Of a stretch of DNA of 64,000 bases, positions 518 through 51,884 are shown in pieces. The position numbers were made by a program, and so were the translations under genes. The DNA comes from Lachnospiraceae bacterium (lineage in GTDB: Bacteria; Bacillota; Clostridia; Lachnospirales; Lachnospiraceae). The stretch spans positions 12,511 through 76,510 of the forward strand of contig JAJQHQ010000019.1 in NCBI GenBank assembly GCA_021199655.1, read 5' to 3'. A model generated the notes under the pieces. It was not told the DNA's origin. It made no database searches and saw only the letters and a list, made by a program, of their open reading frames with translations. Within the stretch, counting starts at the first letter, position 1. Every line of letters begins with the position of its first letter.

Positions 518-1708
518 ATGAAGATTGAGAAAATTGAGTTAGGGTATGTCCACATTCCTCTGATCACGCCGTTTCGCACGGCGCTGCGGACAGTGGACGG
601 GATCAACGATCTGATCGTCAGGATCACGGCGGAGGACGGCAGCTTCGGCTTCGGGGAGGCGCCGCCTACGGCGGTGATCACCGGTGATACGAAGGAGTCT
701 ATTGAGGCGGCGATCCGCGGGTATATTGCGCCGTCGATCATCGGGATGGACCTTTTGGATCTGGATGAGGTCATGCGGAAAATGGAGAAATCTATTGCGA
801 AAAACACGTCGGCGAAAGCAGCGGTGGACATTGCTTTGTATGATCTCTACGCGAAACAGATGGGGATGCCGCTCTACCGGGTATTGTCCGGCGCGCAGGG
901 CAGCAGAATCAGAATGTCGGAACCGGACAAACCGGGCGGTGCGGCTGCCAGAATGGAATCAGGCGAACCGATCAGCGCGGCAGCTAAGGCAGAAGCTGAC
1001 GGCGCTCCAGAGCTGGAGACGGATATTACGATCAGCGTGGATGAGACGGAGAAAATGGTGCGTGACAGCCTGCGCGCGATTGCGGACGGCTTCCGTATTC
1101 TGAAGGTGAAGGTCGGCAAAGGCGGGAAAAAGGATGTCGAGCGGGTACGGGAGATACGGCGGGCGGTCGGACCGGAAATTGTACTCCGCATTGACGCGAA
1201 CCAGGGCTGGTCGGCCAAGGAAGCCATTTCCACGATTCGGGCCATGGAAGAGGAAGGATTGAAGATCGAGCTGGTAGAACAGCCGGTTTCCTGTCATGAT
1301 TTCCGCGGACTTCAGCGGGTGACGAAGGCGGTGGATACGCCGATCCTGGCGGATGAGAGTGTGTTTTCTTATGAGGATGCGGAGCGCATTATCGAGGAAC
1401 ACGCGGCGGATTATATCAATATCAAGCTGATGAAGACCGGCGGCATTCACCAGGCAATGCGCATCTGTGATCTGGCGGATCGATATCAGGTGAACTGCAT
1501 GATCGGATGTATGCTGGAGAGTAAGGTTTCCGTGAGTGCCGGTGCGCATCTGGCTGCCGCGAGAAGCTGTATTACTATGGCTGATCTGGACGGTCCGTCT
1601 CTGTGTGCCGGGGATCCGTATGAGGGCGGTCCGGTCTACAGCGGTCCGAAGATTTATCTGAATGAGGATGCCGGAATCGGAATCCGAACAGTGCCGGTGA
1701 ATCTGTGA
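518..1708 (+). CDS. L-Ala-D/L-Glu (dipeptide) epimerase, enolase superfamily MLE subgroup
   Basis: Motifs ILKVKVG (K-x-K), RIDANQGW, ELVEQP, LADES, NIKLMKTGG. RBS GAGGGAGA lies upstream of the ATG. Context is other murein-peptide enzymes. Confidence 0.85.
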   Translation: MKIEKIELGYVHIPLITPFRTALRTVDGINDLIVRITAEDGSFGFGEAPPTAVITGDTKESIEAAIRGYIAPSIIGMDLLDLDEVMRKMEKSIAKNTSAKAAVDIALYDLYAKQMGMPLYRVLSGAQGSRIRMSEPDKPGGAAARMESGEPISAAAKAEADGAPELETDITISVDETEKMVRDSLRAIADGFRILKVKVGKGGKKDVERVREIRRAVGPEIVLRIDANQGWSAKEAISTIRAMEEEGLKIELVEQPVSCHDFRGLQRVTKAVDTPILADESVFSYEDAERIIEEHAADYINIKLMKTGGIHQAMRICDLADRYQVNCMIGCMLESKVSVSAGAHLAAARSCITMADLDGPSLCAGDPYEGGPVYSGPKIYLNEDAGIGIRTVPVNL

Positions 1709-1747
1709 TTCAATGAAAACAGCGCATGATAATTGCAGAAAAGAGAT

Positions 1748-3568
1748 ATGCTTATGCAAATCAGATATGGGATTGTGACAGCACAGAACTGTTTTTTACG
1801 CGGAAATAACAACGGGATAGAAGATGAGATTTTTTCCGGCTGGGCGGTTCGGGTTTTCCCGGAGACGGAGGAGAATGGCCGGGTAAAAATTGAGACCCAT
1901 TATGGATACGAAGGATATGTGTACAAAGACCAGCTTGCCCTGATCAGCCGGGAAACGCTTGCTGACAGGCAGGATCACACCCGCTTTTTCCGTATAGGAG
2001 TCCCTGCTGCGGATGTGCTGGATCAGCCGAAGGTGCAGGGACTGCTTCTGGAGCGTCTGCTGAAAAATTCAATCGTGGAGCGGGTGACCGAAGCCTCTGA
2101 CATGGACGGCTGGTGTCTCGTGCGCACTGCCGCCGGGGGTGTCGGCTATATGCATGAGAATTATCTGCGTATGCGTCAGGATGACGACGGATATTTGCTG
2201 GAGACGGAAAATCAGACAGAACCGGAATTGCTGCAGAAGAAGACGCGGACAGAGCCGGAAACCATGTCAGCCGGAAACAATTTACCGGAGAGCCAGATGG
2301 AAAATGGCAGGATCGGATACTTTGAAAAACGATTTCAGGAGAATCCTCCGGAAGAGGAAAGTTTTCGTGACGGCGTTGTGCGAAGCGCCCGCTCTTATCT
2401 GGGGGTACAGTACCGCTGGGGAGGAAAATCTTCTCTGGGGCTGGATTGCTCCGGCCTGGCATTTATGAGTTATCTGGAAAACGGCGTTCTGATTTATCGC
2501 GATGCGAAGATAAAGCCCGGATATCCGATTTTTGAAATACCGCGGGAAAAGCTGAAACCGGGGGATCTGATTTTCTTCCCGGGACATGTGGCAATCTATC
2601 TGGGAGAAGGGCGCTACATTCATTCTACCGGATACAAAAAGACTCCGTATGTTACCATCAACAGTCTGAACCCTGCGGATGAGGATTATCGGGCGGATCT
2701 GGCAGCTTCAATCACAGCCTGCGGGAGCATATTTTCAGCGTTAGAGCCTTCGCTTTGCCCGGAGGCAGAAAGGTTTGTTCATGAACCCGATGAAAAATTC
2801 GAAGCCCTGCGCAGGCGTCTGGATGCGATGCCCGGCAATCTCAGTGCGGTATATAAAGATCTGACGACCGGAGAGGTGTTTTTGTATCGGGAAGAAGAAC
2901 CGCATATTGCCGCGAGCGTGATCAAGCTGTTTTTGATGGCGGCTGTTTTTCAGGGATTTGCGGAGGGTGCTTTTTCTCCGGAGGAGCGGATTCTGATCCG
3001 GCGTGAGGACTGTGTGCCGTCCTGCGGGGTGCTGACATACCTGCAGGGAGAGTGTACGGTCAGCGTCCGTGATCTGACGGAGCTGATGATTATTGTCAGT
3101 GACAACACTGCTGCAAATGTCCTGTTTGATCTGGTCGGGGAGGAACGTCTTGCGGAGTTTTTGTCTGATAAGCTCGGCCTGAAAAAGACGGTGTTCCGCA
3201 GAAAAATGTTTGATGCCGGACGGGCCGCACAGGGAATCGAGAATTATGTGACAGCGGCGGACGCGGCCTGGCTGCTGGAGCGGATCTATAAAGGGGAACT
3301 GGTTTCCCGGGAGGCATCAAAAGAAATGTATCAGATCCTGACGCACCAGCGGCTGAACGGTAAAATTCCGTTTTATCTGCATACCTTCGCCAATGCACCG
3401 GTGATCGCGCATAAGACCGGTGAGGACAGCGGCGTCACGCATGACGTGGCCATAGTGGAAGGCGAGAGGCCGTTTGTGCTTTGCTTTCTTGGGAACGAAA
3501 CAAATGTGGCGGACTATGAACGGCTGATGGCGGAGACGGCACGGGATCTATATCTGAAAAGCTGGTAA
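1748..3568 (+). CDS. SH3b-like + NlpC/P60 gamma-D-Glu-diamino-acid endopeptidase fused to a class-A beta-lactamase-like serine hydrolase domain
   Basis: NlpC/P60 core GLDCSGL...PGDLIFFPGHVAIYLG...IHS. The C-terminal half has S-x-x-K (ASVIK), SDN (VSDNTA) and KTG (HKTGED). Start is uncertain (TTG 1733, ATG 1748 or 1754). Confidence 0.8.
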   Translation: MLMQIRYGIVTAQNCFLRGNNNGIEDEIFSGWAVRVFPETEENGRVKIETHYGYEGYVYKDQLALISRETLADRQDHTRFFRIGVPAADVLDQPKVQGLLLERLLKNSIVERVTEASDMDGWCLVRTAAGGVGYMHENYLRMRQDDDGYLLETENQTEPELLQKKTRTEPETMSAGNNLPESQMENGRIGYFEKRFQENPPEEESFRDGVVRSARSYLGVQYRWGGKSSLGLDCSGLAFMSYLENGVLIYRDAKIKPGYPIFEIPREKLKPGDLIFFPGHVAIYLGEGRYIHSTGYKKTPYVTINSLNPADEDYRADLAASITACGSIFSALEPSLCPEAERFVHEPDEKFEALRRRLDAMPGNLSAVYKDLTTGEVFLYREEEPHIAASVIKLFLMAAVFQGFAEGAFSPEERILIRREDCVPSCGVLTYLQGECTVSVRDLTELMIIVSDNTAANVLFDLVGEERLAEFLSDKLGLKKTVFRRKMFDAGRAAQGIENYVTAADAAWLLERIYKGELVSREASKEMYQILTHQRLNGKIPFYLHTFANAPVIAHKTGEDSGVTHDVAIVEGERPFVLCFLGNETNVADYERLMAETARDLYLKSW

Positions 3569-3591
3569 CTGTTCAGTACCTTCACAGTTAC
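3565..3591 (-). repeat. GTAAC-hairpin repeat, exact inverted copy
   Basis: GTAACTGTTCAGTACCTTCACAGTTAC is the exact reverse complement of 142-168. Its TAA (3566-3568) is the stop codon of the upstream ORF. Confidence 0.9.
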
Positions 3592-10683: not shown

Positions 10684-10826
10684 GTGACTATTCAGGACAG
10701 TACTTCGCACTTGCTGCGAAGTACGTATGAAAACGTATATTATGTAGGGAAAAGCCCCATCGCGGCGCGGAGACGCGATTTTAAATGGGCTTTTCCCTCG
10801 TAACTGTGAAGGGACTGAACAGTTAC
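10684..10826 (+). mobile_element. Composite MITE-like repeat (143 bp) bounded by GTAAC-family termini
   Basis: Left end GTGACTATTCAGGACAG starts one base after the dapL TAA. The right end is hairpin copy 10800-10826. Internal perfect stems are 10700-10724 and 10747-10758/10787-10798. Confidence 0.6.
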
Positions 10827-12620: not shown

Positions 12621-13484
12621 ATGGATTGTCAGAAAGGATTCCCAATAAAGCTTTATTGCATGTCTACAGGCATTCTTGATGATCCGGAAATATTCCGGAG
12701 GTATTACCGGGAGATGCCGGAAGGACGGCGTGCAAAGATTGACCGGGTGCGGATGGAGCAGGACAAAAAGCTTTCTCTTGCGGCAGGAATTTTGCTCAAT
12801 CGGGGTCTGCAGGAATTCGGCCTGCGTCAGGAAACAATCCGCATAGAGGAAGGCGCATACGGCAAACCATTCTTTCCGGACTTTCCGGATATCCATTTCA
12901 GTCTCTCCCATTCGCATGAGATGGCGCTGGCGGCCTTAGCTGATACCGAGGTCGGATGTGATATTGAATATCGAAAAAAGCCAAATGAAAAGCTGGCCGG
13001 ACGTTTTTTCTGCCCGGAGGAGAATGCCTGGATGACGGCCGCCCGGACGGAAACGGAGCGGGCGGAACGCTTTTATCGTCTCTGGACCTTAAAAGAGTGC
13101 TTTATCAAGGCTACCGGGCAGGGCCTGCGTCAGCCTCTGGACTCGTTTTGCTTTCGGATCGAGGATGCCAGGTTGCCATCATTGCTTCAATCGGCGGCAG
13201 GGTCTCCGCTGCCGCTTCGGTCCGCGTTAAACGTCTCCGCTTCGCTCCGGTCGGTGCTAAACGAACATCCACTGGATGTTCAGCACCGTCCACTGGACGA
13301 TCAGCGCCTCGCCGCGCATGAGAGAAACGCTTTGCGTTTGGGCGGCGCTGCCGTGGAGATTCGGCGCAGGAACAGTTCTGTGGAGGTCACGCAGACCTTT
13401 GATCAGGCGGAGTATGTGTTTGAGGAATATCGGATTGGCGGAGACGGAGAATATTGTGCGGCTGTGTGCCTGCGCAGCCAATGA
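12621..13484 (+). CDS. Sfp-type 4'-phosphopantetheinyl transferase carrying an in-frame repeat insertion
   Basis: GKPFFPD, HFSLSHS, VGCDIE, FYRLWTLKECFIKATGQG. Alternative start at ATG 12660 (MSTGILDD). Confidence 0.8.
   Translation: MDCQKGFPIKLYCMSTGILDDPEIFRRYYREMPEGRRAKIDRVRMEQDKKLSLAAGILLNRGLQEFGLRQETIRIEEGAYGKPFFPDFPDIHFSLSHSHEMALAALADTEVGCDIEYRKKPNEKLAGRFFCPEENAWMTAARTETERAERFYRLWTLKECFIKATGQGLRQPLDSFCFRIEDARLPSLLQSAAGSPLPLRSALNVSASLRSVLNEHPLDVQHRPLDDQRLAAHERNALRLGGAAVEIRRRNSSVEVTQTFDQAEYVFEEYRIGGDGEYCAAVCLRSQ
13191..13350 (+). repeat. GC-rich repeat modules (module 1 twice, module 2 once) read in frame within the PPTase ORF
   Basis: GTCTCCGCTYCGCTYCGGTCGGYG at 13202-13226 and 13233-13256. 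ATGAGAGAAACGCTTTGCGTTTGGGCGGC at 13318-13346. The same modules occur at 14525, 26302/26411 and 45716/45753. Confidence 0.8.
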
Positions 13485-13577: not shown

Positions 13578-14498
13578 ATGAAAAAACCGGTACTGGTAGT
13601 GATGGCGGCGGGTATGGGCAGTCGCTACGGAGGATTGAAACAGATTGACCCGGTCGATCCGGAAGGGCATATTATCATGGACTTTTCTGTCTATGACGCC
13701 GTCCGCGCCGGATTTGAAAAGGTGATTTTCATTATCAAACGGGAAAATGAAGCGGATTTTCGCGCAGCCATTGGCGACCGCCTCGCCGGGCACATAGAAG
13801 TGGAATACGTTTATCAGGAGCTGACAAACCTTCCGGAAGGGTTTTCCGTGCCGGAGGGCCGTGTGAAACCGTGGGGGACCGGACATGCTGTCTTAAGCTG
13901 TCAGGGAACTGCGGACGGTCCGATGGTCGTTATCAACGCGGATGATTTCTATGGAAGAAACGCGTTTGCGCTGGCGTATGATTTTCTCACACGGAAAGAG
14001 GAAGCCGCAGGCCGCTACATGATGGTCGGCTATCGTCTGGAAAACACACTGACGGAGAACGGATCTGTGGCGCGCGGCGTTTGCAGTACAGATGAGAATG
14101 GTTATCTGAAAACGATCACAGAGCGCACCAGCATTGAACGGCATGGCGACCGGATCGCATACACAGAGGACGGCGGCGCAAGCTGGAATGAGCTTCCCCC
14201 GGATACTACCGTTTCTCTGAATATGTGGGGCTTTTCCGGGGATATTCTTACAGAACTGAACGAGCGCTTCCGGGCATTCCTCGCGGAGAATCTGCCGAAA
14301 AACCCGCTGAAATGCGAGTATTTCCTGCCCTTTGTCGTGGATGAACTGCTGACAGAAGGAAAGGCGACGGTGAAAGTCGAGAAAACTCCGGATAAATGGT
14401 ACGGGGTGACATATAAAGAAGACAAGCCGGCACTGATGGCGGCAATTCAGAAGATGAAGGATGAAGGGGTTTACCCACAGAAGCTGTGGGAAAAGTAA
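13578..14498 (+). CDS. Sugar-phosphate nucleotidyltransferase family protein (substrate unknown)
   Basis: N-terminal VVMAAGMGSRYGGLKQI signature and WGTGHAV. AAGGAG lies 9 nt before ATG 13578; the track ORF begins at 13497 inside a repeat. Confidence 0.7.
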   Translation: MKKPVLVVMAAGMGSRYGGLKQIDPVDPEGHIIMDFSVYDAVRAGFEKVIFIIKRENEADFRAAIGDRLAGHIEVEYVYQELTNLPEGFSVPEGRVKPWGTGHAVLSCQGTADGPMVVINADDFYGRNAFALAYDFLTRKEEAAGRYMMVGYRLENTLTENGSVARGVCSTDENGYLKTITERTSIERHGDRIAYTEDGGASWNELPPDTTVSLNMWGFSGDILTELNERFRAFLAENLPKNPLKCEYFLPFVVDELLTEGKATVKVEKTPDKWYGVTYKEDKPALMAAIQKMKDEGVYPQKLWEK

Positions 14499-14665
14499 CA
14501 TTAGTTCAGAACAGCAGACCACAGGTCTCCGCTCCGCTCCGGTCGGTGCTTAACGTGTGCCACTGGCACGCAGCACCCGCCCATCCCAAGAAGAAAAGAC
14601 AGCCTTTAGCAGACAAGTCTGCACAGGCTGTCTTTTCTTCTTGCTGCTGTTCTGAACTGTTTCAC
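14495..14665 (+). mobile_element. Composite MITE-like repeat (171 bp) with inverted termini
   Basis: Termini are GTAACATTAGTTCAGAACAGCAG (14495-14517) and CTGCTGTTCTGAACTGTTTCAC (14644-14665). It carries module 1 (14525-14548) and a 19-bp perfect stem (14587-14605/14625-14643). Its TAA is the stop of the upstream gene. Confidence 0.7.
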
Positions 14666-14796
14666 AATTTTACTTATTCTTTACATAAGAGGGATTATGC
14701 ATTTTACATAGCGTGACTAAAATGATTATCGTAACGGGGCACCGATAAGCCCCGGAATTCGATCAGAAAACGATTAGAAAAAGGAGATCATTTATT

Positions 14797-15684
14797 ATGA
14801 AAAGAAAAGCAATCGCAGCGGTAATCGCAGCAATGATGGCAGCAAGCCTTGGTACAACGGCTCTGGCAGACGCAACAGGTGACATTGTAGTATGCTCAAG
14901 AGAGGATGGCTCAGGTACACGCGGAGCGTTCATCGAGCTGGTAGGTGTAGAGCAGAAGGATGAGGACGGCAACAAGGTAGATATGACGACAGAAGCGGCT
15001 GAGATCACGAACAGCACATCCGCTATGATGACCAAGGTTGCAGGTGATGAGAACGCAATTGGTTACATCTCTCTTGGCTCTCTGGACGACAGCGTAACAG
15101 CAGTTGCGATCGACCAAGTAGAGGCAACGGTAGAGAACGTAGAGTCCGGTGATTACACGGTTGTTCGTCCGTTCAACATTCTGACCATGGAAGAAGTCAG
15201 CGCAGAAGCACAGGATTTCATCGACTTTATCTTAAGCGAAGAAGGTCAGGCGGTTATTTCTGACAACGGTTACATCGCACTTTCTGACGCAGAGCCTTTC
15301 GCAGGCGGCAGCGTATCCGGCAAGATCGTAGTCGGCGGTTCTTCTTCCGTAACACCGGTAATGGAGAAGCTGGCTGAGGCTTATGCGGAAGTAAACGCAG
15401 ACCTTGAGATTGAAGTAATGCAGAGCGATTCTACCACAGGTGTTACCTCCACGATCGACGGCAACTATGACATTGGTATGGCTTCCCGTGATCTGAAGGA
15501 AGAGGAAGAGGCAGAAGGCATCTCCGCTACCATGATCGCACAGGACGGCATTGCGGTGATCGTCAATAATGAGAGCGGAATCACCGAACTGACCACAGAG
15601 CAGGTTATGATGATCTACACCGGCGAGCTCACTACATGGGAAGATGTGGCTGCATATGTGCCGGAAGAGACTGAGGCTGAGTAA
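14797..15684 (+). CDS. pstS: Phosphate ABC transporter substrate-binding lipoprotein/secreted protein
   Basis: Signal peptide, SREDGSGTRGAF and GGSSSVTP PstS-type motifs, first gene of the pstSCAB-phoU order. Confidence 0.85.
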   Translation: MKRKAIAAVIAAMMAASLGTTALADATGDIVVCSREDGSGTRGAFIELVGVEQKDEDGNKVDMTTEAAEITNSTSAMMTKVAGDENAIGYISLGSLDDSVTAVAIDQVEATVENVESGDYTVVRPFNILTMEEVSAEAQDFIDFILSEEGQAVISDNGYIALSDAEPFAGGSVSGKIVVGGSSSVTPVMEKLAEAYAEVNADLEIEVMQSDSTTGVTSTIDGNYDIGMASRDLKEEEEAEGISATMIAQDGIAVIVNNESGITELTTEQVMMIYTGELTTWEDVAAYVPEETEAE

Positions 15685-24906: not shown

Positions 24907-27090
24907 ATGAATATGCGTACAGAATATCAAAACAAAATGTGCGGCACTGAACAATTGTTTCTTGCAGCCTATGCACTGTGGCTGACCGCCACAGACCTGA
25001 AGCTGACGATGTGGGCATACGTTGCTCCTGCGTCGAGATTGTTCAGCTGTATGCAGCTTGCCGCGTATCTGCTGCTCGGGATACAGTTTTTGGTAAAGCC
25101 TGCATCAAAGAAACACTATGGGAAAAAGGATCTGGCCGGTGTCCTTCTGATTTTGTTCTGCTCGGTGCTTGTCTGGCATGCCGGCAGAACGAACCGGCAG
25201 ATTTTTCCGGTGTTGTTGTTTCTGTATTTTTCCGCTGATATTCCTTACAAAAAGATTCTCAAATGCTCTGTGGCAATACAGCTTGCGGTTATGACATTTG
25301 CCATTGCAACATCCGGCTGCGGGCTGATTGAGGATGTCCTCTGGTACGAAGGAGATCGCGTAAGACACAGCCTCGGATATGATTATTGCGGCTATCCTGC
25401 ACATATCATGCTGTTTGTGACGATGAGCTGGCTTTGTATCCGGGGAAAAGCGCATCTTGCAGACGCAGCGGTTCTTCTGGCTTTGAACGGTGTACTCTTT
25501 ATCCTCACGGACTCCAGATCGGATCTGCTTCTGGCAGTTCTGGGGATTGCAGGAGCATTCCTGTGGGGACGTGATTTTACAGTGGAGCCTGAAGGAAATC
25601 CTTTAGGAAGATGTTTGTCCCGCGTTTTTTGCCATGTCAGAAATTTTCTTGCAAAATTCGGCTTTCTGATCGCGTTTGTGATTTCGGTTGTCGTGCAGTT
25701 TTTTTATAATTCGGACAGCACCTTCTGGTACCGCATCAACGAGACTCTGAACGGGCGTTTGCAGCTGGGACATTCCGCGATACAGGAATATGGATTTTCT
25801 CTGTTTGGGAAGGCGATTCACTGGTACGGACAGGGCAGCCTGCGGCTGGGGATGTCGGATACCTATAATTATGTGGACAACTCATTTTTAAAAGAACTTC
25901 TGACGTATGGCTGGGTATTCGCTGTACTGCTGCTCATCGGATTTTACTTTACAGGGAAAAAACTGGCGCAGCAGGAAGAATGGATGCTCTGCTGGGCGCT
26001 GCTGATCACGATTGCTTACTCTGTCATTAATGCGCAGCTTTGCGTCCTTTCCTTTCAGCCGTTTATCCTGCTTCCGGGGATGCTGTTTGCATCAGAGAAA
26101 GGGGCGGGTAATTCGGGCGCAGAGTCTCCGCACACAGGTTCAAAGAAATCCGGGGAAACAAAAGAATTGAAAGAACTGAAAAAAACGGAAGAAACTGCCG
26201 GAAACAGCCGTATGAGATTCCTCAACACAGAGATTGATAATGTCACATTTGAGGAAGCGCTTACGTGGATCGAGGCATATCTGGATGACGCAGAGGAAGT
26301 GCTCTCCGCTCCGCTTCGGTCGGCGGATATCCCGCCCGAAGGGCGAGGATGCCCGCGCCCCACAATCGGAGATTGGGGGCATAACCCGGCGAGGGCAGAA
26401 TGTGCCGCCCATGAGAGAAACGCTGCGCGTTTGGGCGGCTACATTGTCACCCCGAATGTGGATCATATCGTCCGGCTGGAGACAGACCAGGCGCTGCAAA
26501 AGGCATATGAGAGCGCGTCCCTGGTGTTGACGGACGGGCAGCCGCTCATCTGGATTTCCAAATGGCTGGGTACCCCGATCAAAGAGAAAATATCCGGTTC
26601 GGATCTGTTCCCGAGAGTCTGTCAGCTGGCCGCGAAAAAAGGCTATCGGATGTATTTCCTCGGCGCGGGTCCGGGAGTGGCTGATATGGCAGCCCAAAAG
26701 CTGACAACAGACTATCCCGGACTGCAGGTGGTCGGCACCTTCTCTCCGGCATATGGATTTGAAAAGGATGAAAGTCAGATAAAAGAAGTCTGGCAGAAGA
26801 TACACCAGGCAAAGCCGGATATCCTGATCGCAGCACTTGGCACGCCGAAACAGGAAATTTTCCTGTGGGAGAGCCGGGAAGAACTGAACGGGATGCTGGC
26901 GTTCGGCATCGGTGCGGGACTTGACTTTGCGGCCGGGAACGTAAAACGCGCGCCGCACTGGATGCAGAAATGCGGTCTTGAGTGGTTCTACCGCCTCTGC
27001 CATGAGCCGAAACGGCTTTTTAAACGCTATCTCGTCGATGGCCTGAGGATCCTGCCGATCGTGTGGAAATATCGGAAAGAAAAGGGATAA
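24907..27090 (+). CDS. Fusion: polytopic O-antigen polymerase/ligase-like membrane domain + WecG/TagA (GT26) glycosyltransferase domain
   Basis: About 400 aa of multiple TM helices, a K/E-rich linker, then the GT26 core IVTPNVDHIV, TDGQPLIW, LGTPKQEIF, GAGLDFAAG. One continuous ORF. Confidence 0.7.
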   Translation: MNMRTEYQNKMCGTEQLFLAAYALWLTATDLKLTMWAYVAPASRLFSCMQLAAYLLLGIQFLVKPASKKHYGKKDLAGVLLILFCSVLVWHAGRTNRQIFPVLLFLYFSADIPYKKILKCSVAIQLAVMTFAIATSGCGLIEDVLWYEGDRVRHSLGYDYCGYPAHIMLFVTMSWLCIRGKAHLADAAVLLALNGVLFILTDSRSDLLLAVLGIAGAFLWGRDFTVEPEGNPLGRCLSRVFCHVRNFLAKFGFLIAFVISVVVQFFYNSDSTFWYRINETLNGRLQLGHSAIQEYGFSLFGKAIHWYGQGSLRLGMSDTYNYVDNSFLKELLTYGWVFAVLLLIGFYFTGKKLAQQEEWMLCWALLITIAYSVINAQLCVLSFQPFILLPGMLFASEKGAGNSGAESPHTGSKKSGETKELKELKKTEETAGNSRMRFLNTEIDNVTFEEALTWIEAYLDDAEEVLSAPLRSADIPPEGRGCPRPTIGDWGHNPARAECAAHERNAARLGGYIVTPNVDHIVRLETDQALQKAYESASLVLTDGQPLIWISKWLGTPIKEKISGSDLFPRVCQLAAKKGYRMYFLGAGPGVADMAAQKLTTDYPGLQVVGTFSPAYGFEKDESQIKEVWQKIHQAKPDILIAALGTPKQEIFLWESREELNGMLAFGIGAGLDFAAGNVKRAPHWMQKCGLEWFYRLCHEPKRLFKRYLVDGLRILPIVWKYRKEKG
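26299..26439 (+). repeat. GC-rich repeat modules read in frame inside the GT26 domain
   Basis: Module 1 at 26302-26326 and module 2 at 26411-26439. The centre 26327-26353 has an inverted copy at 38890-38915 (24/26 nt). Confidence 0.8.
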
Positions 27091-28397: not shown

Positions 28398-29780
28398 ATG
28401 AGTAATTACAGCAAGCTTTACTTTACAATAAAAAAATACGGTGGTGTATTCAAAAATATTGTCCCCAGGCAGACACGTATGGCTCTGAAGGACAAGCTGG
28501 TGCAGAAGAATATCGCAGAGTTTTTAAGTACAAAAAAATCGTATGACAGCAAGGCATGGCCTGACGGGGTGAACCTGATCGGCAGCATACGCGCCGAGAT
28601 GGGGCTTGGACAGAGCTGCCGCCTTGTAGCACGGCAGCTGCAGATGAGCGGCTGTCCGTTTTCTATCTGCAACATCGGATTCGACGATAACCTGCGGGAG
28701 GACGACCACTCCTGGGATGACTATATTTCCGTAGAAGTGCCGCCACTCTCACGGGCAACACTGGACGATCGCTTACAGAACAATCAGCGTCCGCCCTCGC
28801 AGGCTGCGGAATATGCCGCTGACGGGACAAACGCTTCGCGTCCGAATGGCTCATCGGCATTACCCTTTGGGATCAATCTCTTTCATGTGAACCTGTGCGA
28901 GATGGGAAACATGTTTTCTGCCAATTCATCGTTCTGGGACGGGCATTACAATATTGCATTCTGGCTCTGGGAGCTCGAAGACTTCCCAAAAGAGTGGGTG
29001 AAATACTGCAGTCTTTTTGACGAGATATGGACGCCCTCCGCATTTGCGGGGCGCGGCATGCAGAAGGTGATCGATGTGCCGGTGCGCACGGTGCCATACC
29101 GTCCGACGGCGCCCTTCGATGATTCCTGTACGAGAGAAACATTTGGGCTGCCGGAACATAAATTCCTCGCTCTGATCATGTATGATTCCAACAGCACCAC
29201 CGGGCGCAAGAACCCGCAGGGTGCGATCACGGCTTACCGAAAGGCTTTCCCACAGGAAGATAAGGACTGCGGGCTCGTGATCAAGATCAATAACGCAAAG
29301 GATGAGGATGTACGGTGCCTGAAAAAGGAACTTGATGGGTATCGTAATGTGTATTTTATCACTGAAGTGCTGGAAAAAGAGAAAGTAAACAGCCTGATTC
29401 GCTGCTGCGACGTCTATCTTTCCCTGCACCGCTCGGAAGGCTTCGGTCTGGTCATTGCGGAGGCCATGCTTCTTGGCACACCCGTGATCGCCACCAACTA
29501 TTCCTCGAACGTTGAATTCATGAGCGAAGAGGCATCCTGCCTTGTGGATTATCAGCTGATCAAAAATCCGCACACCGAGGGTGCGTACAAAAAGGGCTGT
29601 GTGTGGGCTGACCCGGATCTGGATCAGGCTGCCGAATACATCCGCCGCCTGAAAAACGACCGGGCATACTATGAATCAAAAGTAAAAAACGGAGCGGCAT
29701 ATCTCGACCGGGCATTGAATGAAGAAAAGCTGAATGCACTGTGGAGAGAGAGAATTGGAGCTGTGGGGGCTGATCATTGA
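28398..29780 (+). CDS. Glycosyltransferase, group-1-like C-terminal domain
   Basis: RSEGFGLVIAEAMLLGTPVIAT (E-x7-E). GAGGGA RBS. Confidence 0.75.
   Translation: MSNYSKLYFTIKKYGGVFKNIVPRQTRMALKDKLVQKNIAEFLSTKKSYDSKAWPDGVNLIGSIRAEMGLGQSCRLVARQLQMSGCPFSICNIGFDDNLREDDHSWDDYISVEVPPLSRATLDDRLQNNQRPPSQAAEYAADGTNASRPNGSSALPFGINLFHVNLCEMGNMFSANSSFWDGHYNIAFWLWELEDFPKEWVKYCSLFDEIWTPSAFAGRGMQKVIDVPVRTVPYRPTAPFDDSCTRETFGLPEHKFLALIMYDSNSTTGRKNPQGAITAYRKAFPQEDKDCGLVIKINNAKDEDVRCLKKELDGYRNVYFITEVLEKEKVNSLIRCCDVYLSLHRSEGFGLVIAEAMLLGTPVIATNYSSNVEFMSEEASCLVDYQLIKNPHTEGAYKKGCVWADPDLDQAAEYIRRLKNDRAYYESKVKNGAAYLDRALNEEKLNALWRERIGAVGADH
28738..28856 (+). repeat. Degenerate copy of the GC-rich module set, in frame in the glycosyltransferase ORF
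   Basis: CACTGGACGATC (28759-28770) is identical to 13291-13302. GACAAACGCTTCGCGTCCGAATGGC (28826-28850) matches module 2 at 18/25 nt in the same reading frame (LDD..., NA.R..G). Confidence 0.5.
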
Positions 29781-45500: not shown

Positions 45501-46432
45501 GACGCCATCAGACGATCGATCAGGAAGGCACACAGCTTGTCTGCGGGTTACTGGCAGGAACTGTTTTTGTTATTCTGATGCTGCTTTTGTATAATGGCAA
45601 TGCGGAATGTCCCCGATATACGGCGATCCTGAATTCGGTATATTGCATTCTGATTCCGATTGTGGTATCATTTCTCGGGCATCAGGCAGCAACTGCCGGC
45701 CATGCGGTGGAAGCGCCCCCTCCCTTACGGTCGGCGGCAGGTTGCGCCGTCAATGAGAGAAACGCTGCGCGTTTGGACGGCGCTGCAGTATCTGCGGGAA
45801 AGCAGACTCCTCTGCCGGCAGCTGTGATGGGGGTTCTGGCCGTCCTGCTGCTGATACAGACGTACTGGACGATCGATCCGGTCATCCTGGTGCATGGTTC
45901 GGGAATTGATACCGGAAAGAAGACATTGTATCGTCTGGCTCTTGATCAGGATTCCCGTTCAGGGATGAATCTGGGAGCTGATTATAGTGAATATACAGCT
46001 GTAGGGGATATTTATGCTTATAATATTGAGTACAGCTATTATAACAGCCTGATCCGGGAAGCAATGACGGAGATTGAGCCTGATAAAGAGGATCAGTTTT
46101 ACATTCTGGATCTGATCACATATGAGATGCATCTTAGCGGGGAGCAGTATCCCATTTACTGGAACTCCCGATTAGGAAAAATGACCTATGACGGCGAGGA
46201 TGAGGACAGTATATTACTTTCACAGGAAAGTATAAAAACGGAAGATCTCTGTGCGGCAGATATCGGCTCATTGGAATTAGAAGAGGAATTTTATCTGGTA
46301 GTTGCGGCGCGCGTGGATGAGCAGGCCGCGGTGGACCGCATTCTGGAAGAAGGATATGAAGCAGCGGAAGTACTCGAATATGAGAATCTATACGGGGCGA
46401 TGAGTGTATACCGCTTTGTTAAACAGTCCTGA
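42596..46432 (+). CDS. 1278-aa surface/membrane protein: signal peptide, two GLUG-like modules, GT-C-like polytopic domain, C-terminal soluble domain
   Basis: Modules are at about 42715-43215 and 43520-44010 (PYLIQS...QTxDxxL...WxPIG...YDGxGH...GLFGQL...NCxN...GGIADxF), followed by more than 10 TM helices. Confidence 0.6.
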   Translation: MKAGHLKNNTHTKTAFLIFCIVLFTVSMSIMKVRAEDTEFPFSGDGSKDSPYLIQSVEELCEFRDLVNEGEEFQDCYFYQTGNLDLGGMDWVPIGIYGSGHYFYGVYDGGGHYLENLTIVEPIDPGENESSSKPGLFGQLAGIVLNLGIESGEIEGTYCGSIASHAVSGASPYIINCYNKADVKGRRAGGIADNFSGGTIINCWYSANIESLSGTASGPASYDGILIDCFGITDDYADSFLGTIIAARGTGSESDQSGDSRIFDAGLFYLPEEIDIDMLIPWEWDEDENELVFSENTSAQVSVNAETAFEGEGTEAEPYLIQSWSDLCMFRYLVNTGNEFSGIYFQQTADIAIESDDWIPVGICGSGNYFYGIYDGAGHAITGLRTKYHMDSEQDSKGLFGQLGGVVANLRLEAVDMEGAYCGAIAAMAAGKGEERTAAILNCFVSGSITGYRVGGIADYFSEATIANCISDVTITLYEDAGDWEDNTGGILSSSLDTKVYGCRTTAAQVMPDAYTSATSGVITAEDLQDKGFVLRQNIRTALTQELFANRFGVRLMQWELTEEGILQFGEGQLYLLLFDWMNLYLLPVLLLVFIISILILMKKTGIKRFEDRYHQQISAVLIISAILSVFVDCAAFGTAKGSLCFGNLCFVIQIHVVFAASLLLFTGYVRTHGRRNIRIGRGNRTGLITLSAVMLLTLILELRQFGITPLYDASLYYGSLVRGVKLFRLDLFSYIGAFVCWKWAQGSALLIAPLEFLLPGQMTGVYVSNIIITEITIVVMYRLLKESISDCSPVLAALSGAILIFCPYQLGMFTYLNFDTYLSCYVIWLLYSYRRKNNLMIAFCGYLLCFTKITGGIFYVLFLVAASVYEALRRYTGSWLRRMAGWWSWPRCIIWMVPGFLYLGAYLFGDWLTIQHFEGAYVISAMASAKTLVSAGNTLVQAFVFGFRWLFLLIIIAAGILWLICPPGRHQTIDQEGTQLVCGLLAGTVFVILMLLLYNGNAECPRYTAILNSVYCILIPIVVSFLGHQAATAGHAVEAPPPLRSAAGCAVNERNAARLDGAAVSAGKQTPLPAAVMGVLAVLLLIQTYWTIDPVILVHGSGIDTGKKTLYRLALDQDSRSGMNLGADYSEYTAVGDIYAYNIEYSYYNSLIREAMTEIEPDKEDQFYILDLITYEMHLSGEQYPIYWNSRLGKMTYDGEDEDSILLSQESIKTEDLCAADIGSLELEEEFYLVVAARVDEQAAVDRILEEGYEAAEVLEYENLYGAMSVYRFVKQS
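45712..45790 (+). repeat. GC-rich repeat modules read in frame in the 1278-aa ORF
   Basis: Degenerate module 1 at 45716-45737 (..CTTACGGTCGGCGG). Module 2 ATGAGAGAAACGCTGCGCGTTTGGACGGC at 45753-45781. Confidence 0.75.
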
Positions 46433-50697: not shown

Positions 50698-51637
50698 AGA
50701 GAAGAAAAAGATATCTGTGATGATCCCCTGCTATAATGAGGAAGAAAATGTGGTTCCCATCAGCGAAGCGGTCGTAGATATTTTAAATAAAGAACTGCCG
50801 GAATATGATTATGAAATCCTGTTTATCGACAACTGCTCTACGGATAAGACCAGAGATCTGCTTCGGGCTATCTGCAGTCAGAACAAAAAGATCAGGGCAA
50901 TCCTGAACGCCAGAAATTTTGGACAGTTTAATTCCCCCTACTATGGACTTTGCCAGACGACGGGAGACTGTACGATCTCTCTGTGCTGTGATTTTCAGGA
51001 TCCGGTGGAACTGATCCCGGTGTTTGTTCATGAATGGGAAAAAGGCTATAAGATCGTCAGCGGGATTAAGACGTCCAGCAAGGAAAATCGTTTTATTTAT
51101 TTTTTGAGAACCGTATATTATAAGCTGATCAAAAATATGTCGTCCGTGGATATGATCGAGCACTTCACCGGTTTTGGACTGTATGATAAAGACTTTATCC
51201 AGCTGCTTCGCGATCTGGAGGATCCGATTCCGTTTATCCGTGGGGTGGTTGCGGAATTTGGCTATAAACGAAAGGAAATCGAATACGAGCAGCCGAAACG
51301 GAGAGCGGGGAAAACACACAACAATTTTTATTCCCTGTATGATGCCGCCATGTTGAGCTTCACTTCTTACACGAAGGTCGGACTGCGGCTGGCAAGCTTT
51401 GTGGGATATATCTGTGCGTTTTTCAGTTTTGTAGTCGGAATCGTATATTTTGTTCAGAAGCTTCTGCACTGGAACGACTTTTCAGCCGGCATGGCGCCGC
51501 TGGTCATAGGACTGTTTTTCCTGTCCGGCATTGAGCTGATCTTTATCGGATTTCTGGGAGAATATGTCATGAATATCAACCAGAGAGTGATGAACAGGCC
51601 TCTGGTGATAGAAGAAGAGAGAATCAATTTTGAGTAA
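50690..51637 (+). CDS. GT2 polyprenyl-phosphate glycosyltransferase (GtrB/ArnC-like) with two C-terminal TM helices
   Basis: ISVMIPCYNEEENV, FIDNCSTDKT, CDFQDP. The C-terminal TM pair is typical of GtrB. Confidence 0.8.
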   Translation: MSKEKKKISVMIPCYNEEENVVPISEAVVDILNKELPEYDYEILFIDNCSTDKTRDLLRAICSQNKKIRAILNARNFGQFNSPYYGLCQTTGDCTISLCCDFQDPVELIPVFVHEWEKGYKIVSGIKTSSKENRFIYFLRTVYYKLIKNMSSVDMIEHFTGFGLYDKDFIQLLRDLEDPIPFIRGVVAEFGYKRKEIEYEQPKRRAGKTHNNFYSLYDAAMLSFTSYTKVGLRLASFVGYICAFFSFVVGIVYFVQKLLHWNDFSAGMAPLVIGLFFLSGIELIFIGFLGEYVMNINQRVMNRPLVIEEERINFE

Positions 51638-51809
51638 CAGTTCAGAACAGCATCGAAATGAAAAGACAGACCGTGCAGGTTTACCTGCAAAAGGCTGTAT
51701 TTTCATTTCGGGATGGGCGGAACGCCCATCAAGCCTCAGACATATGACGCGCAGGCGGCATATAGCCTTCGAAGAAGGCGGTCTGTGGCCTGCTGTTCTG
51801 AACAGTTAC
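51634..51809 (+). mobile_element. Composite MITE-like repeat (176 bp) with near-perfect inverted termini
   Basis: GTAACAGTTCAGAACAGCA (51634-51652) / TGCTGTTCTGAACAGTTAC (51791-51809), 18/19 complementary. The interior shares GAAAAGACAG with 14495-14665. Its TAA is the stop of the GT2 gene. Confidence 0.7.
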
Positions 51810-51884
51810 AATTTTGAGGGCGACGACGATAATACTTAATACCAGAAACCATTCAGGAACTGTCTGAATGTCAGGAGAAGAAGA

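Follow-up and report, generated by a model that had tools for sequence, protein, structure and literature searches.

Bacterial MITEs, of which the Correia elements of Neisseria and MITEAba12 are examples, are small, non-coding, multi-copy, intergenic sequences that favour AT-rich targets and often form hairpins; they possess inverted termini and duplications of a fixed length, and often alter the ends of neighbouring genes or supply terminators. REP and Y1 systems make no target duplication, and Rickettsia palindromic elements (RPEs) are short palindromic repeats that occur both between genes and in frame in ORFs, and for which we know of no transposase. Ends that start with GTAA, combined with an 8-bp duplication, point to IS66. 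In the ISBst12 group of the IS66 family, ISDge4 of Deinococcus geothermalis is a published element with a single transposase gene; its ends are GTGACTACTCAGCA and GTAACTGCTCAGCA, and its direct repeat is 8 bp long (PMC12898284).

We analysed a stretch of 64,000 nucleotides of a Lachnospiraceae genome, referred to here as the window (C56:12511-76510; the assembly, G000, is a 110-contig draft of 3.98 Mb with 49% GC), in which a 171-bp element at 14495-14665 lies directly before a pst operon. According to our analysis, it is very probably a decayed, internally deleted copy of a MITE of family B, as we name it here, with the mobilisation and the history that are proposed below. As a MITE it is an observation of a known kind of selfish DNA; the family was previously unnamed, and no published description of these Lachnospiraceae MITEs was found in the literature searched.

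Like ISDge4 of the ISBst12 group (PMC12898284), family B has ends of GTAAC and then ..T(C/T)TCAG (GTAACTGCTCAGCA compared with GTAACTATTCAGAACAGCAG) and an 8-bp direct repeat, and the single-ORF relatives of about 1.8 kb from gut Firmicutes have 15 terminal nucleotides in common with family B, as well as 8-bp duplications. Unlike the insertion sequences of this group, the 171-bp element is non-coding, shares with them the terminal ~15 nt only and has no intact partner in its genome. General MITE traits are shared with the Correia elements and MITEAba12, but the transposase family and the termini differ, and compared with them this family is strongly modular, containing nested passenger repeats and giving many internal-deletion derivatives down to 21-41 bp. 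RPEs are analogous to the nested module only, by virtue of its intergenic and in-frame occurrence; the sequences are unrelated and, unlike RPEs, the module nests at fixed sites inside MITEs.

Parts of the 171-bp element and its neighbours

The features of the locus, in window coordinates, are as follows.

13578-14498, plus strand: upstream NTP-transferase-like gene (306 aa), with its stop codon inside the MITE terminus
14495-14517, plus strand: left terminus of the MITE, GTAACATTAGTTCAGAACAGCAG, degenerate, containing the TAA at 14496-14498
14518-14524, plus strand: family B linker ACCACAG (consensus GCCACAG), conserved; its 3' edge is module site S1
14525-14577, plus strand: nested 53-nt GC-rich module, GTCTCCGCTCCGCTCCGGTCGGTGC and then the hairpin GGTGCT..GTGCCACTGGCAC..AGCACC
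14578-14587, plus strand: CGCCCATCCC, which forms the 3' arm of a family B hairpin, GATGGGCG..CGCCCATC, with module site S3 as its loop
14587-14643, plus strand: long hairpin with a perfect 19-bp stem (14587-14605/14625-14643) and an inner 5-bp hairpin at 14609-14622
14644-14665, plus strand: right terminus of the MITE, CTGCTGTTCTGAACTGTTTCAC, degenerate against the consensus GATGCTGTTCTGAACTGTTAC
14666-14796, plus strand: pstS upstream region, conserved and alignable in relatives, beginning at the right edge of the MITE
14797-15684, plus strand: PstS-like phosphate-binding protein gene (PBP_like_2), which heads the pst operon

An earlier note on this DNA had described imperfect inverted termini with a perfectly complementary 14-nt core, a perfect 19-bp stem and a position between a stop codon and pstS, all of which we find at the locus. 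The imperfect arms of 22-23 nt enclose the perfect core GTTCAGAACAGCAG, in which 14504-14517 is complementary to 14644-14657 over its whole length. Both ends are degenerate: the left one reads GTAAC-ATTAG-TTCAGAACAGCAG (GTAAC-ATTAG-TTCAG) as against the family B consensus GTAACTATTCAGAACAGCAG (GTAAC-TA-TTCAG), and the right one has GTTTCAC where the consensus has GTTAC. With at most one mismatch, the core 14-mer finds four matches in the window, 0.02 being expected by chance, and the remaining two of the four delimit a second element at 51634-51809.

The TAA of the NTP-transferase-like gene falls within the GTAAC terminus, and the MITE probably supplies the stop codon of this gene. On the other side of the element, repeated TTTACA boxes and one promoter-like site (14703-14732) mark 14666-14796 as the putative pstS promoter region. 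The element is short, well within the size of less than about 500 bp that is characteristic of MITEs, and non-coding, the sole ORF overlapping it being a 76-aa frame (14486-14716) that runs across the hairpins. The folding energy of the whole element is -87.7 kcal/mol for RNA (z = -10.7) and -50.5 kcal/mol for DNA (z = -9.5). At permissive thresholds Rfam returned only generic hairpin matches for the 171-bp copy (16-25 bits against thresholds of 54-103) and zero matches for the canonical family B copy.

Two MITE families and their probable transposase partner

The earlier note had proposed clustering all genomic copies, and further copies with paired termini do exist: the family B left end TTCAGAACAGCAGRCCRCAG has 71 matches in the genome, and about 30 copies have both ends. 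They range from 41 to 329 bp and fall into size classes of 176 (canonical), 226, 276 and 327-329 bp. The canonical 176-bp form is ordered as GTAACTATTCAGAACAGCAG-GCCACAG, a core with three small hairpins, GATGGGCGTTCCGCCCATCCC, the long hairpin and GATGCTGTTCTGAACTGTTAC, the consensus ends of the family being GTAACTATTCAGAACAGCAG and GTAACAGTTCAGAACAGCAT (the latter as reverse complement). One, two and three copies of the module, added at fixed internal sites S1 to S4, give the 226, 276 and 327-329 bp classes, and internal deletions have left forms of 41, 64 and 83 bp. The 171-bp copy is 91% identical over 135 nt to a family B copy on C109, and more than 104 exact matches to the family B left end were found in other Lachnospiraceae MAGs.

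A sister family, A, with elements of about 134 bp and at least 62 paired copies, is more abundant than family B, with which it has the terminus GTAACNNTTCAG in common. It starts with GTAACTATTCAGGACAGTAC and ends precisely in the 27-nt hairpin GTAACTGTGAAGGTACTGAACAGTTAC, and for this reason the 27-nt hairpin family is an end-piece and minimal derivative of family A. Hence the suggestion of the earlier note that these hairpins look like a solo terminus folded back on itself was essentially right: they are the terminal 27 nt of family A, and solo copies are flanked by 8-bp duplications. In total, some 270 of the 27-nt hairpins and some 100 longer elements populate 4 Mb. A plasmid collection searched with family A gave no match. 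Each family has a copy with a target duplication in the window:

51634-51809, minus strand: canonical 176-bp family B copy without a module, with a perfect 8-bp duplication TCAAAATT at 51810-51817 and 51626-51633
10684-10826, plus strand: family A copy of 143 bp, flanked by the 8-bp duplication GAATGTAA; the 27-nt hairpin forms its right end

We compared the 8-nt flanks of the elements with shuffled flank pairs, which agree with at most one mismatch in 0.35% and at most two in 2.4% of cases. Perfect 8-bp duplications abut both ends in 38 of the 114 paired GTAAC elements. Stricter sets give duplications with no more than one mismatch for 47 of 62 family A elements, and with no more than two for 8 of 20 in family B (2 perfect, 3 with one mismatch, 3 with two); among 175 solo 27-nt hairpins 23 are perfect and 27 have one mismatch. 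Thus, both families make 8-bp target-site duplications, with a purine-A-A-rich target preference, and the counts in the two of them indicate that family B is real but older than family A. At the flanks of the 171-bp copy itself no target duplication was found (GGGAAAAG against AATTTTAC) and, because it is absent, the insertion event of this copy is not directly demonstrable.

A partner type with the same ends and an 8-bp duplication exists in related bacteria. Single-ORF IS66-family elements of 1816-1818 bp (L041, L163-L177) have ends that agree with family B in all of its first 15 nt, GTAACTATTCAGAAC. One of these, 1816 bp long and from a genome within the same bacterial family, is bounded by (G)TAACTATTCAGAACCCCC and GGGGGTTCTGAATAGTTAC; its only ORF encodes 488 aa and matches NF033517 (IS66 family transposase) with 248 bits. 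G002, which belongs to the same genus as G000, has a truncated copy that is 79% identical and ends in GTAACTATTCAGAACCAGC. On metagenome contigs, many of them labelled human gut, we found 63 full-length relatives bounded by such ends, with a modal length of 1817 bp, and 14 of the 63 have perfect 8-bp duplications. An insertion sequence variant (L233/L234), GTAACTGTTCAGGAC... / ...CTGAACAGTTAC, fits family A. Canonical IS66 elements were rejected as the partner; their ends read GTAAGCG... or GTACCTTGAC and they make up most of the Pfam DDE_Tnp_IS66 matches in the bacterial family and the genus, the right partner type being the lower-scoring elements of ~490 aa among these matches.

The earlier note had asked for an autonomous element encoding a transposase with the same termini, and the answer is divided: none is intact in this genome, and single-gene IS66 elements of about 1817 bp are present in the same bacterial family and in gut metagenomes. 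No intact partner transposase was found in the assembly or in 24 genomes of the genus, the only IS66 trace in G000 being a 141-aa C-terminal relic on C6, which is 34% identical. A scan of G000 for an autonomous copy (GTAAC termini 0.4-8 kb apart plus an 8-bp duplication) returned only three chance-level pairs with one mismatch, and a scan of 155 fetched loci for GTAAC pairs with an 8-bp duplication returned none. It is for this reason that mobilisation by the insertion sequence clade has to be read from matching ends and duplication length and not from a co-resident element; on these grounds we infer that the MITEs are mobilised in trans by the ISBst12-type clade. The sequence common to MITE and insertion sequence is limited to the terminal ~15 nt, and because only the ends are shared, the MITEs are not simple deletion derivatives of the latter.

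One could also think of REP or BIME-type repeats, spread by a RAYT or an IS200-like Y1 (HUH) transposase that acts on single-stranded hairpins, since ~270 copies of a 27-nt imperfect palindrome starting with GTAAC, mostly intergenic, and two Y1_Tnp genes in the genome speak for it. However, 8-bp duplications are seen at family A, at family B and even at solo hairpins, the ends match those of DDE-type ISBst12 elements, and both Y1 genes belong to ordinary IS200 and IS605 elements (tnpA + tnpB), whose flanking hairpins are unrelated and contain no GTAAC repeats. The duplications and the ordinary nature of the Y1 genes lead us to exclude the REP/RAYT explanation, to which we attach next to no probability, and to keep to DDE-type MITEs.

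The nested GC-rich module

A claim of the earlier note that turned out to be correct is that the element contains a module which is also found inside an enzyme ORF: 14525-14555 is 94% identical over 31 nt to 13233-13263, within a PPTase ORF. The same is true for the relation of its CCACTGG segment, as the hairpin GTGCCACTGGCAC corresponds to ACATCCACTGGATGT at 13271-13285, with compensatory changes in the stem. A module profile built from 55 seed copies gave 107 hits in the genome. Family B holds 37 of them and family A 9; a further 10 fall inside spanning ORFs, 1 at a contig end and 50 in other contexts. Inside the two MITE families the module recurs at hairpin loops and GTCTG-like sites, and it is also present in other repeated intergenic hairpins and in frame within ORFs; some of the modules in other contexts lie between short inverted flanks or within other repeats. 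A co-occurring GC-rich hairpin repeat, Rfam RF02987 (GA-cis), is found at 45705-45788 (45.6 bits) and stands beside module 1 in ORF-internal arrays; it is absent from 14495-14665.

The earlier note went further and tied the hairpin repeats and the ORF-internal modules into one system. For the hairpin family and the element this part stands, since they share a transposase-recognition end; for the module it does not. If modules and MITE were one mobile system, in which the same transposase spreads the module and the ORF-internal copies are MITE fragments, it would be natural to find 46 of the 107 module hits inside family A or B and, in family B, to see them at four fixed internal sites. But the other 61 hits are outside both families, and no GTAAC termini were found near non-MITE modules in the inspected copies. 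The modules have no inverted termini and no 8-bp duplication of their own, filled and empty sites differ by a replacement of ~3 nt, the same MITE site is occupied by differing module and stem variants, and, in one copy, the modules at S2 and S3 are older than a species split. We consider a single system unlikely. The lack of inverted termini and duplications and the variants at the same site argue for a passenger with its own mode of spread, and the module is not a part of the transposase-recognised system but nested in it.

The module, which consists of TCTMCGCTNCCGCTYCGGTCGGYGC and a hairpin centred on CCACTGG with compensatory variants in its stem, might even be propagated separately by an undescribed mechanism, which we put forward as a tentative idea that is more doubtful than not. 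Sites of insertion read CACAG|ACC|GCC, ATAT|GTC|TGAGG, GGGCG|TTC|CGCCC and CACA|GTC|TGTC, and no unambiguous insertion rule emerged from these four sequences. The idea of an RNA gene at two module insertions, one on C29 that looked tRNA-like and one in a hairpin on C88, was dropped, as ARAGORN and Rfam found none there.

History of the 171-bp copy and its place before pstS

Global alignment of the 171-bp copy to a 327-bp copy on C14 gives 88% identity over 166 positions with two gaps. The first gap spans 111 bp, from a point within the S1 module to the corresponding point of the S3 module, and the second is the S4 module, absent from the 171-bp copy. The surviving module at 14525-14577 is a hybrid whose 5' half is similar to S1 copies and whose 3' half, with GTGCCACTGGCAC, is similar to S3 copies. 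The 111-bp loss would most simply be read as unequal recombination, or slippage, between direct-repeat modules. The copy is probably immobile today, because the assembly has no matching transposase. That it is old, internally deleted and probably immobile are traits which the earlier note had not considered.

The orthologous junction differs in content or length in each of the four relatives G017, G014, G020 and G018, where the spacer measures 39 bp, ~40 bp, ~180 bp of a different element and 1.7 kb with extra genes. G017, whose flanks are 81-85% identical, has a 39-bp relic, TTCAGAACAGCA..GCTGTTCTGAAC, with the right junction in identical register; from GCTGTTCTGAAC through 16 nt and then TTTAC it agrees with G000 base for base. 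G014 has a left-end relic, TTCAGAAAAAGCAGGCCGCAG, G020 a family A relic and a classical terminator, and G018 an extra kinase-like gene, a toxin-antitoxin pair and a right-end remnant. The sequence that a clean empty site would join directly to the stop codon is AATTTTACTT. Elsewhere, family B copies are shared with other MAGs at orthologous positions, with internal deletions as the difference, as for the copies on C98 and C80, and the copy on C37 is missing from the orthologous site in L054. The insertion before pstS is old, and the region has not been conserved in its present form. Presence/absence polymorphism, which the earlier note had advised to check, is thus seen as a junction that differs between relatives. 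The two findings that the note named as speaking against mobile DNA, a lack of further paired copies and a conservation of the region as it is, were not obtained; the paired ends across the genome, the 8-bp duplications in the family, the partner type in relatives and the variable orthologous site bear out its proposal of a MITE.

The relics in G017, G014, G020 and G018 may be thought of as separate insertions at an AT-rich hotspot just past the stop codon. The relic in G020 belongs to family A and not to family B, another locus has family B in one species and an A-type hairpin in another, and the duplications show a purine-A-A-rich preference with elements clustering just after stops. Yet the base-for-base identity of the right junctions in G000 and G017, and the 18 of 20 nt of the B-specific left end that are kept in G014, are more in line with one old insertion, so that independent events, even if they deserve some consideration, seem improbable to us.

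A quite different possibility would be that the stretch is not mobile DNA and that it serves the pst operon as a conserved cis-regulatory leader or as a structured RNA, for instance as a phosphate-responsive element: pstS follows directly downstream, shuffled sequences fold far less well, and the hairpin covaries. On the other hand, ~30 copies stand beside unrelated genes, the element is upstream of the conserved block of TTTACA boxes and promoter and not between the promoter and the start codon, the orthologous spacer is as variable as described above, and Rfam offers no family beyond generic hairpins far below threshold. Copy number, the position upstream of the promoter block and the variable orthologous site together exclude a pstS leader RNA for us, and the chance of it we regard as minimal.

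Over 29 copies, compensatory double changes are found in 14 of 24 stem pairs of the long hairpin and 91% of cells are paired, compared with no more than 47% in slid registers. Two internal stem mismatches (columns 21/56 and 26/51) are kept by most copies; the 171-bp copy alone has standard pairs at both, and its stem is fully paired. This hairpin has -37.2 kcal/mol, with an A-tract in the 5' arm and a T-tract in the 3' arm, a layout that is plausible for a candidate bidirectional terminator. In this spacer, every syntenic relative has some hairpin with a T-rich run after it, and the inner TTCAG of the terminus is no further than 34 nt from the end of the upstream ORF in 19 of the 23 measurable family B copies. 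Against this role, the U-tract sits within the 3' arm of the long stem, and a simple terminator scan reported nothing at the element, owing to its loop limit of 3-8 nt. Divergent intergenic regions hold 7 of 31 family B copies, compared with a background of 17%; as the copies do not avoid such regions, a terminator-driven distribution is not favoured. We see a terminator role of the long hairpin as possible, with the odds slightly against it; through such a predicted terminator the element would insulate the pstS promoter.

From the information discussed above, it would be reasonable to propose the following course of events. The MITE copies would be mobilised in trans by a single-gene IS66-family (ISBst12-type) DDE transposase that recognises ends of 12-15 nt, GTAACTATTCAGAAC, and makes 8-bp target duplications. 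One MITE, which would have carried nested copies of the ~53-nt GC-rich hairpin module, may have inserted at or beside the stop codon of the upstream gene at a time when the related species of the genus had not yet diverged. A deletion between two direct-repeat modules would then have removed the left-central core and left one hybrid module, and later the outer termini would have degenerated, with no duplication surviving.

Current ideas about transposition are unchanged by these data. At the locus itself, a gene has gained one codon and a new TAA at its 3' end from the element, which has also put a very stable hairpin immediately before a phosphate-regulated operon. For uncultured gut Lachnospiraceae in general, a dense class of repeats is explained as IS66/ISBst12-type MITEs and their deletion products; their identification as MITEs should prevent annotation as RNAs, and accounts for many contig breaks in MAGs. 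The 171-bp copy illustrates clearly, on a small scale, how a MITE can serve a second repeat as landing pad and recombination substrate, and if the module is separately propagating, this element would show that modules remodel their host MITEs by inter-module recombination.

The proposed partner element and a second IS66-like type in draft assemblies

The exact 488-aa transposase of the proposed family B partner, the IS66-family (ISBst12-type) element whose ends are matched by those of the MITE, was found only on Logan contigs of unit-element length (L160-L162, 1816-1820 bp), which is the signature of a multi-copy insertion sequence collapsed by short-read assembly. Such collapse may explain why no partner was seen in the draft MAGs of the genus. 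In the relative G020 a second type of IS66-like element occupies 1317-3583 of locus L047 (contig C116); it is about 2.27 kb long, has the ends GTTACTATTCAC, contains a 530-aa ORF and is accompanied by the perfect 8-bp duplication ACTATTTT. In G000, the genome that contains the window, the terminus GTTACTATTCAC recurs at the ends of several contigs (C32, C39 and C42), and this suggests another assembly-breaking repeat family.

Module copies and the GA-cis repeat

Copies of the module, the 53-nt GC-rich hairpin repeat, are also hosted by other repeated intergenic sequences of G000, where short inverted sequences often flank them in a layout that resembles insertion into hairpin loops:

Module copies in other intergenic repeats of G000
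C88:678-732
C90:18256-18310
C103:21024-21080
C76:60217-60273
C19:20834-20890

No tRNA or Rfam RNA was recognised in either of the two module-bearing regions tested (C29, C88). The sole above-threshold Rfam match in the window is GA-cis (RF02987; 45705-45788, minus strand, 45.6 bits). This match is part of a repeat family with four copies, which accompanies module 1, the 5' part of the module, inside ORFs:

Copies of this repeat family in the window
13301-13346
26394-26439
28805-28850
45736-45781

The family B copy at the pstS junction and its target sites

The long hairpin of the window copy (14587-14643) is the only one among 29 family B hairpins with a standard pair at both of the usually mismatched stem positions (alignment columns 21/56 and 26/51); its full pairing may have arisen by chance, through correction of the palindrome or because a stronger hairpin was selected. 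Directly after the MITE, at 14660-14712, stand four TTTACA-like boxes (TTTCAC, TTTTAC, TTTACA, TTTACA), which are conserved in relatives and resemble Pho-box repeats belonging to the pstS promoter; TTTCAC, the first box, overlaps the degenerate MITE end. At the orthologous junction of the closest relative, G018 (L014, C52:109100-111100), three additional genes separate the NTP-transferase gene from pstS:

Additional genes at the G018 junction
kinase-like gene, 381 aa, overlapping the NTP-transferase stop
two small genes (80 and 87 aa) on the opposite strand, resembling a toxin-antitoxin pair

Genome-wide, the 5' end of the perfect duplications favours purine-A-A, and the inner TTCAG of the family B terminus, 7 nt inside GTAAC, lies 2-19 nt past the end of the upstream ORF in 17 of the 23 measurable copies; given this spacing, the upstream stop codon often lies right next to the GTAAC end, shares bases with it or is contributed by it.
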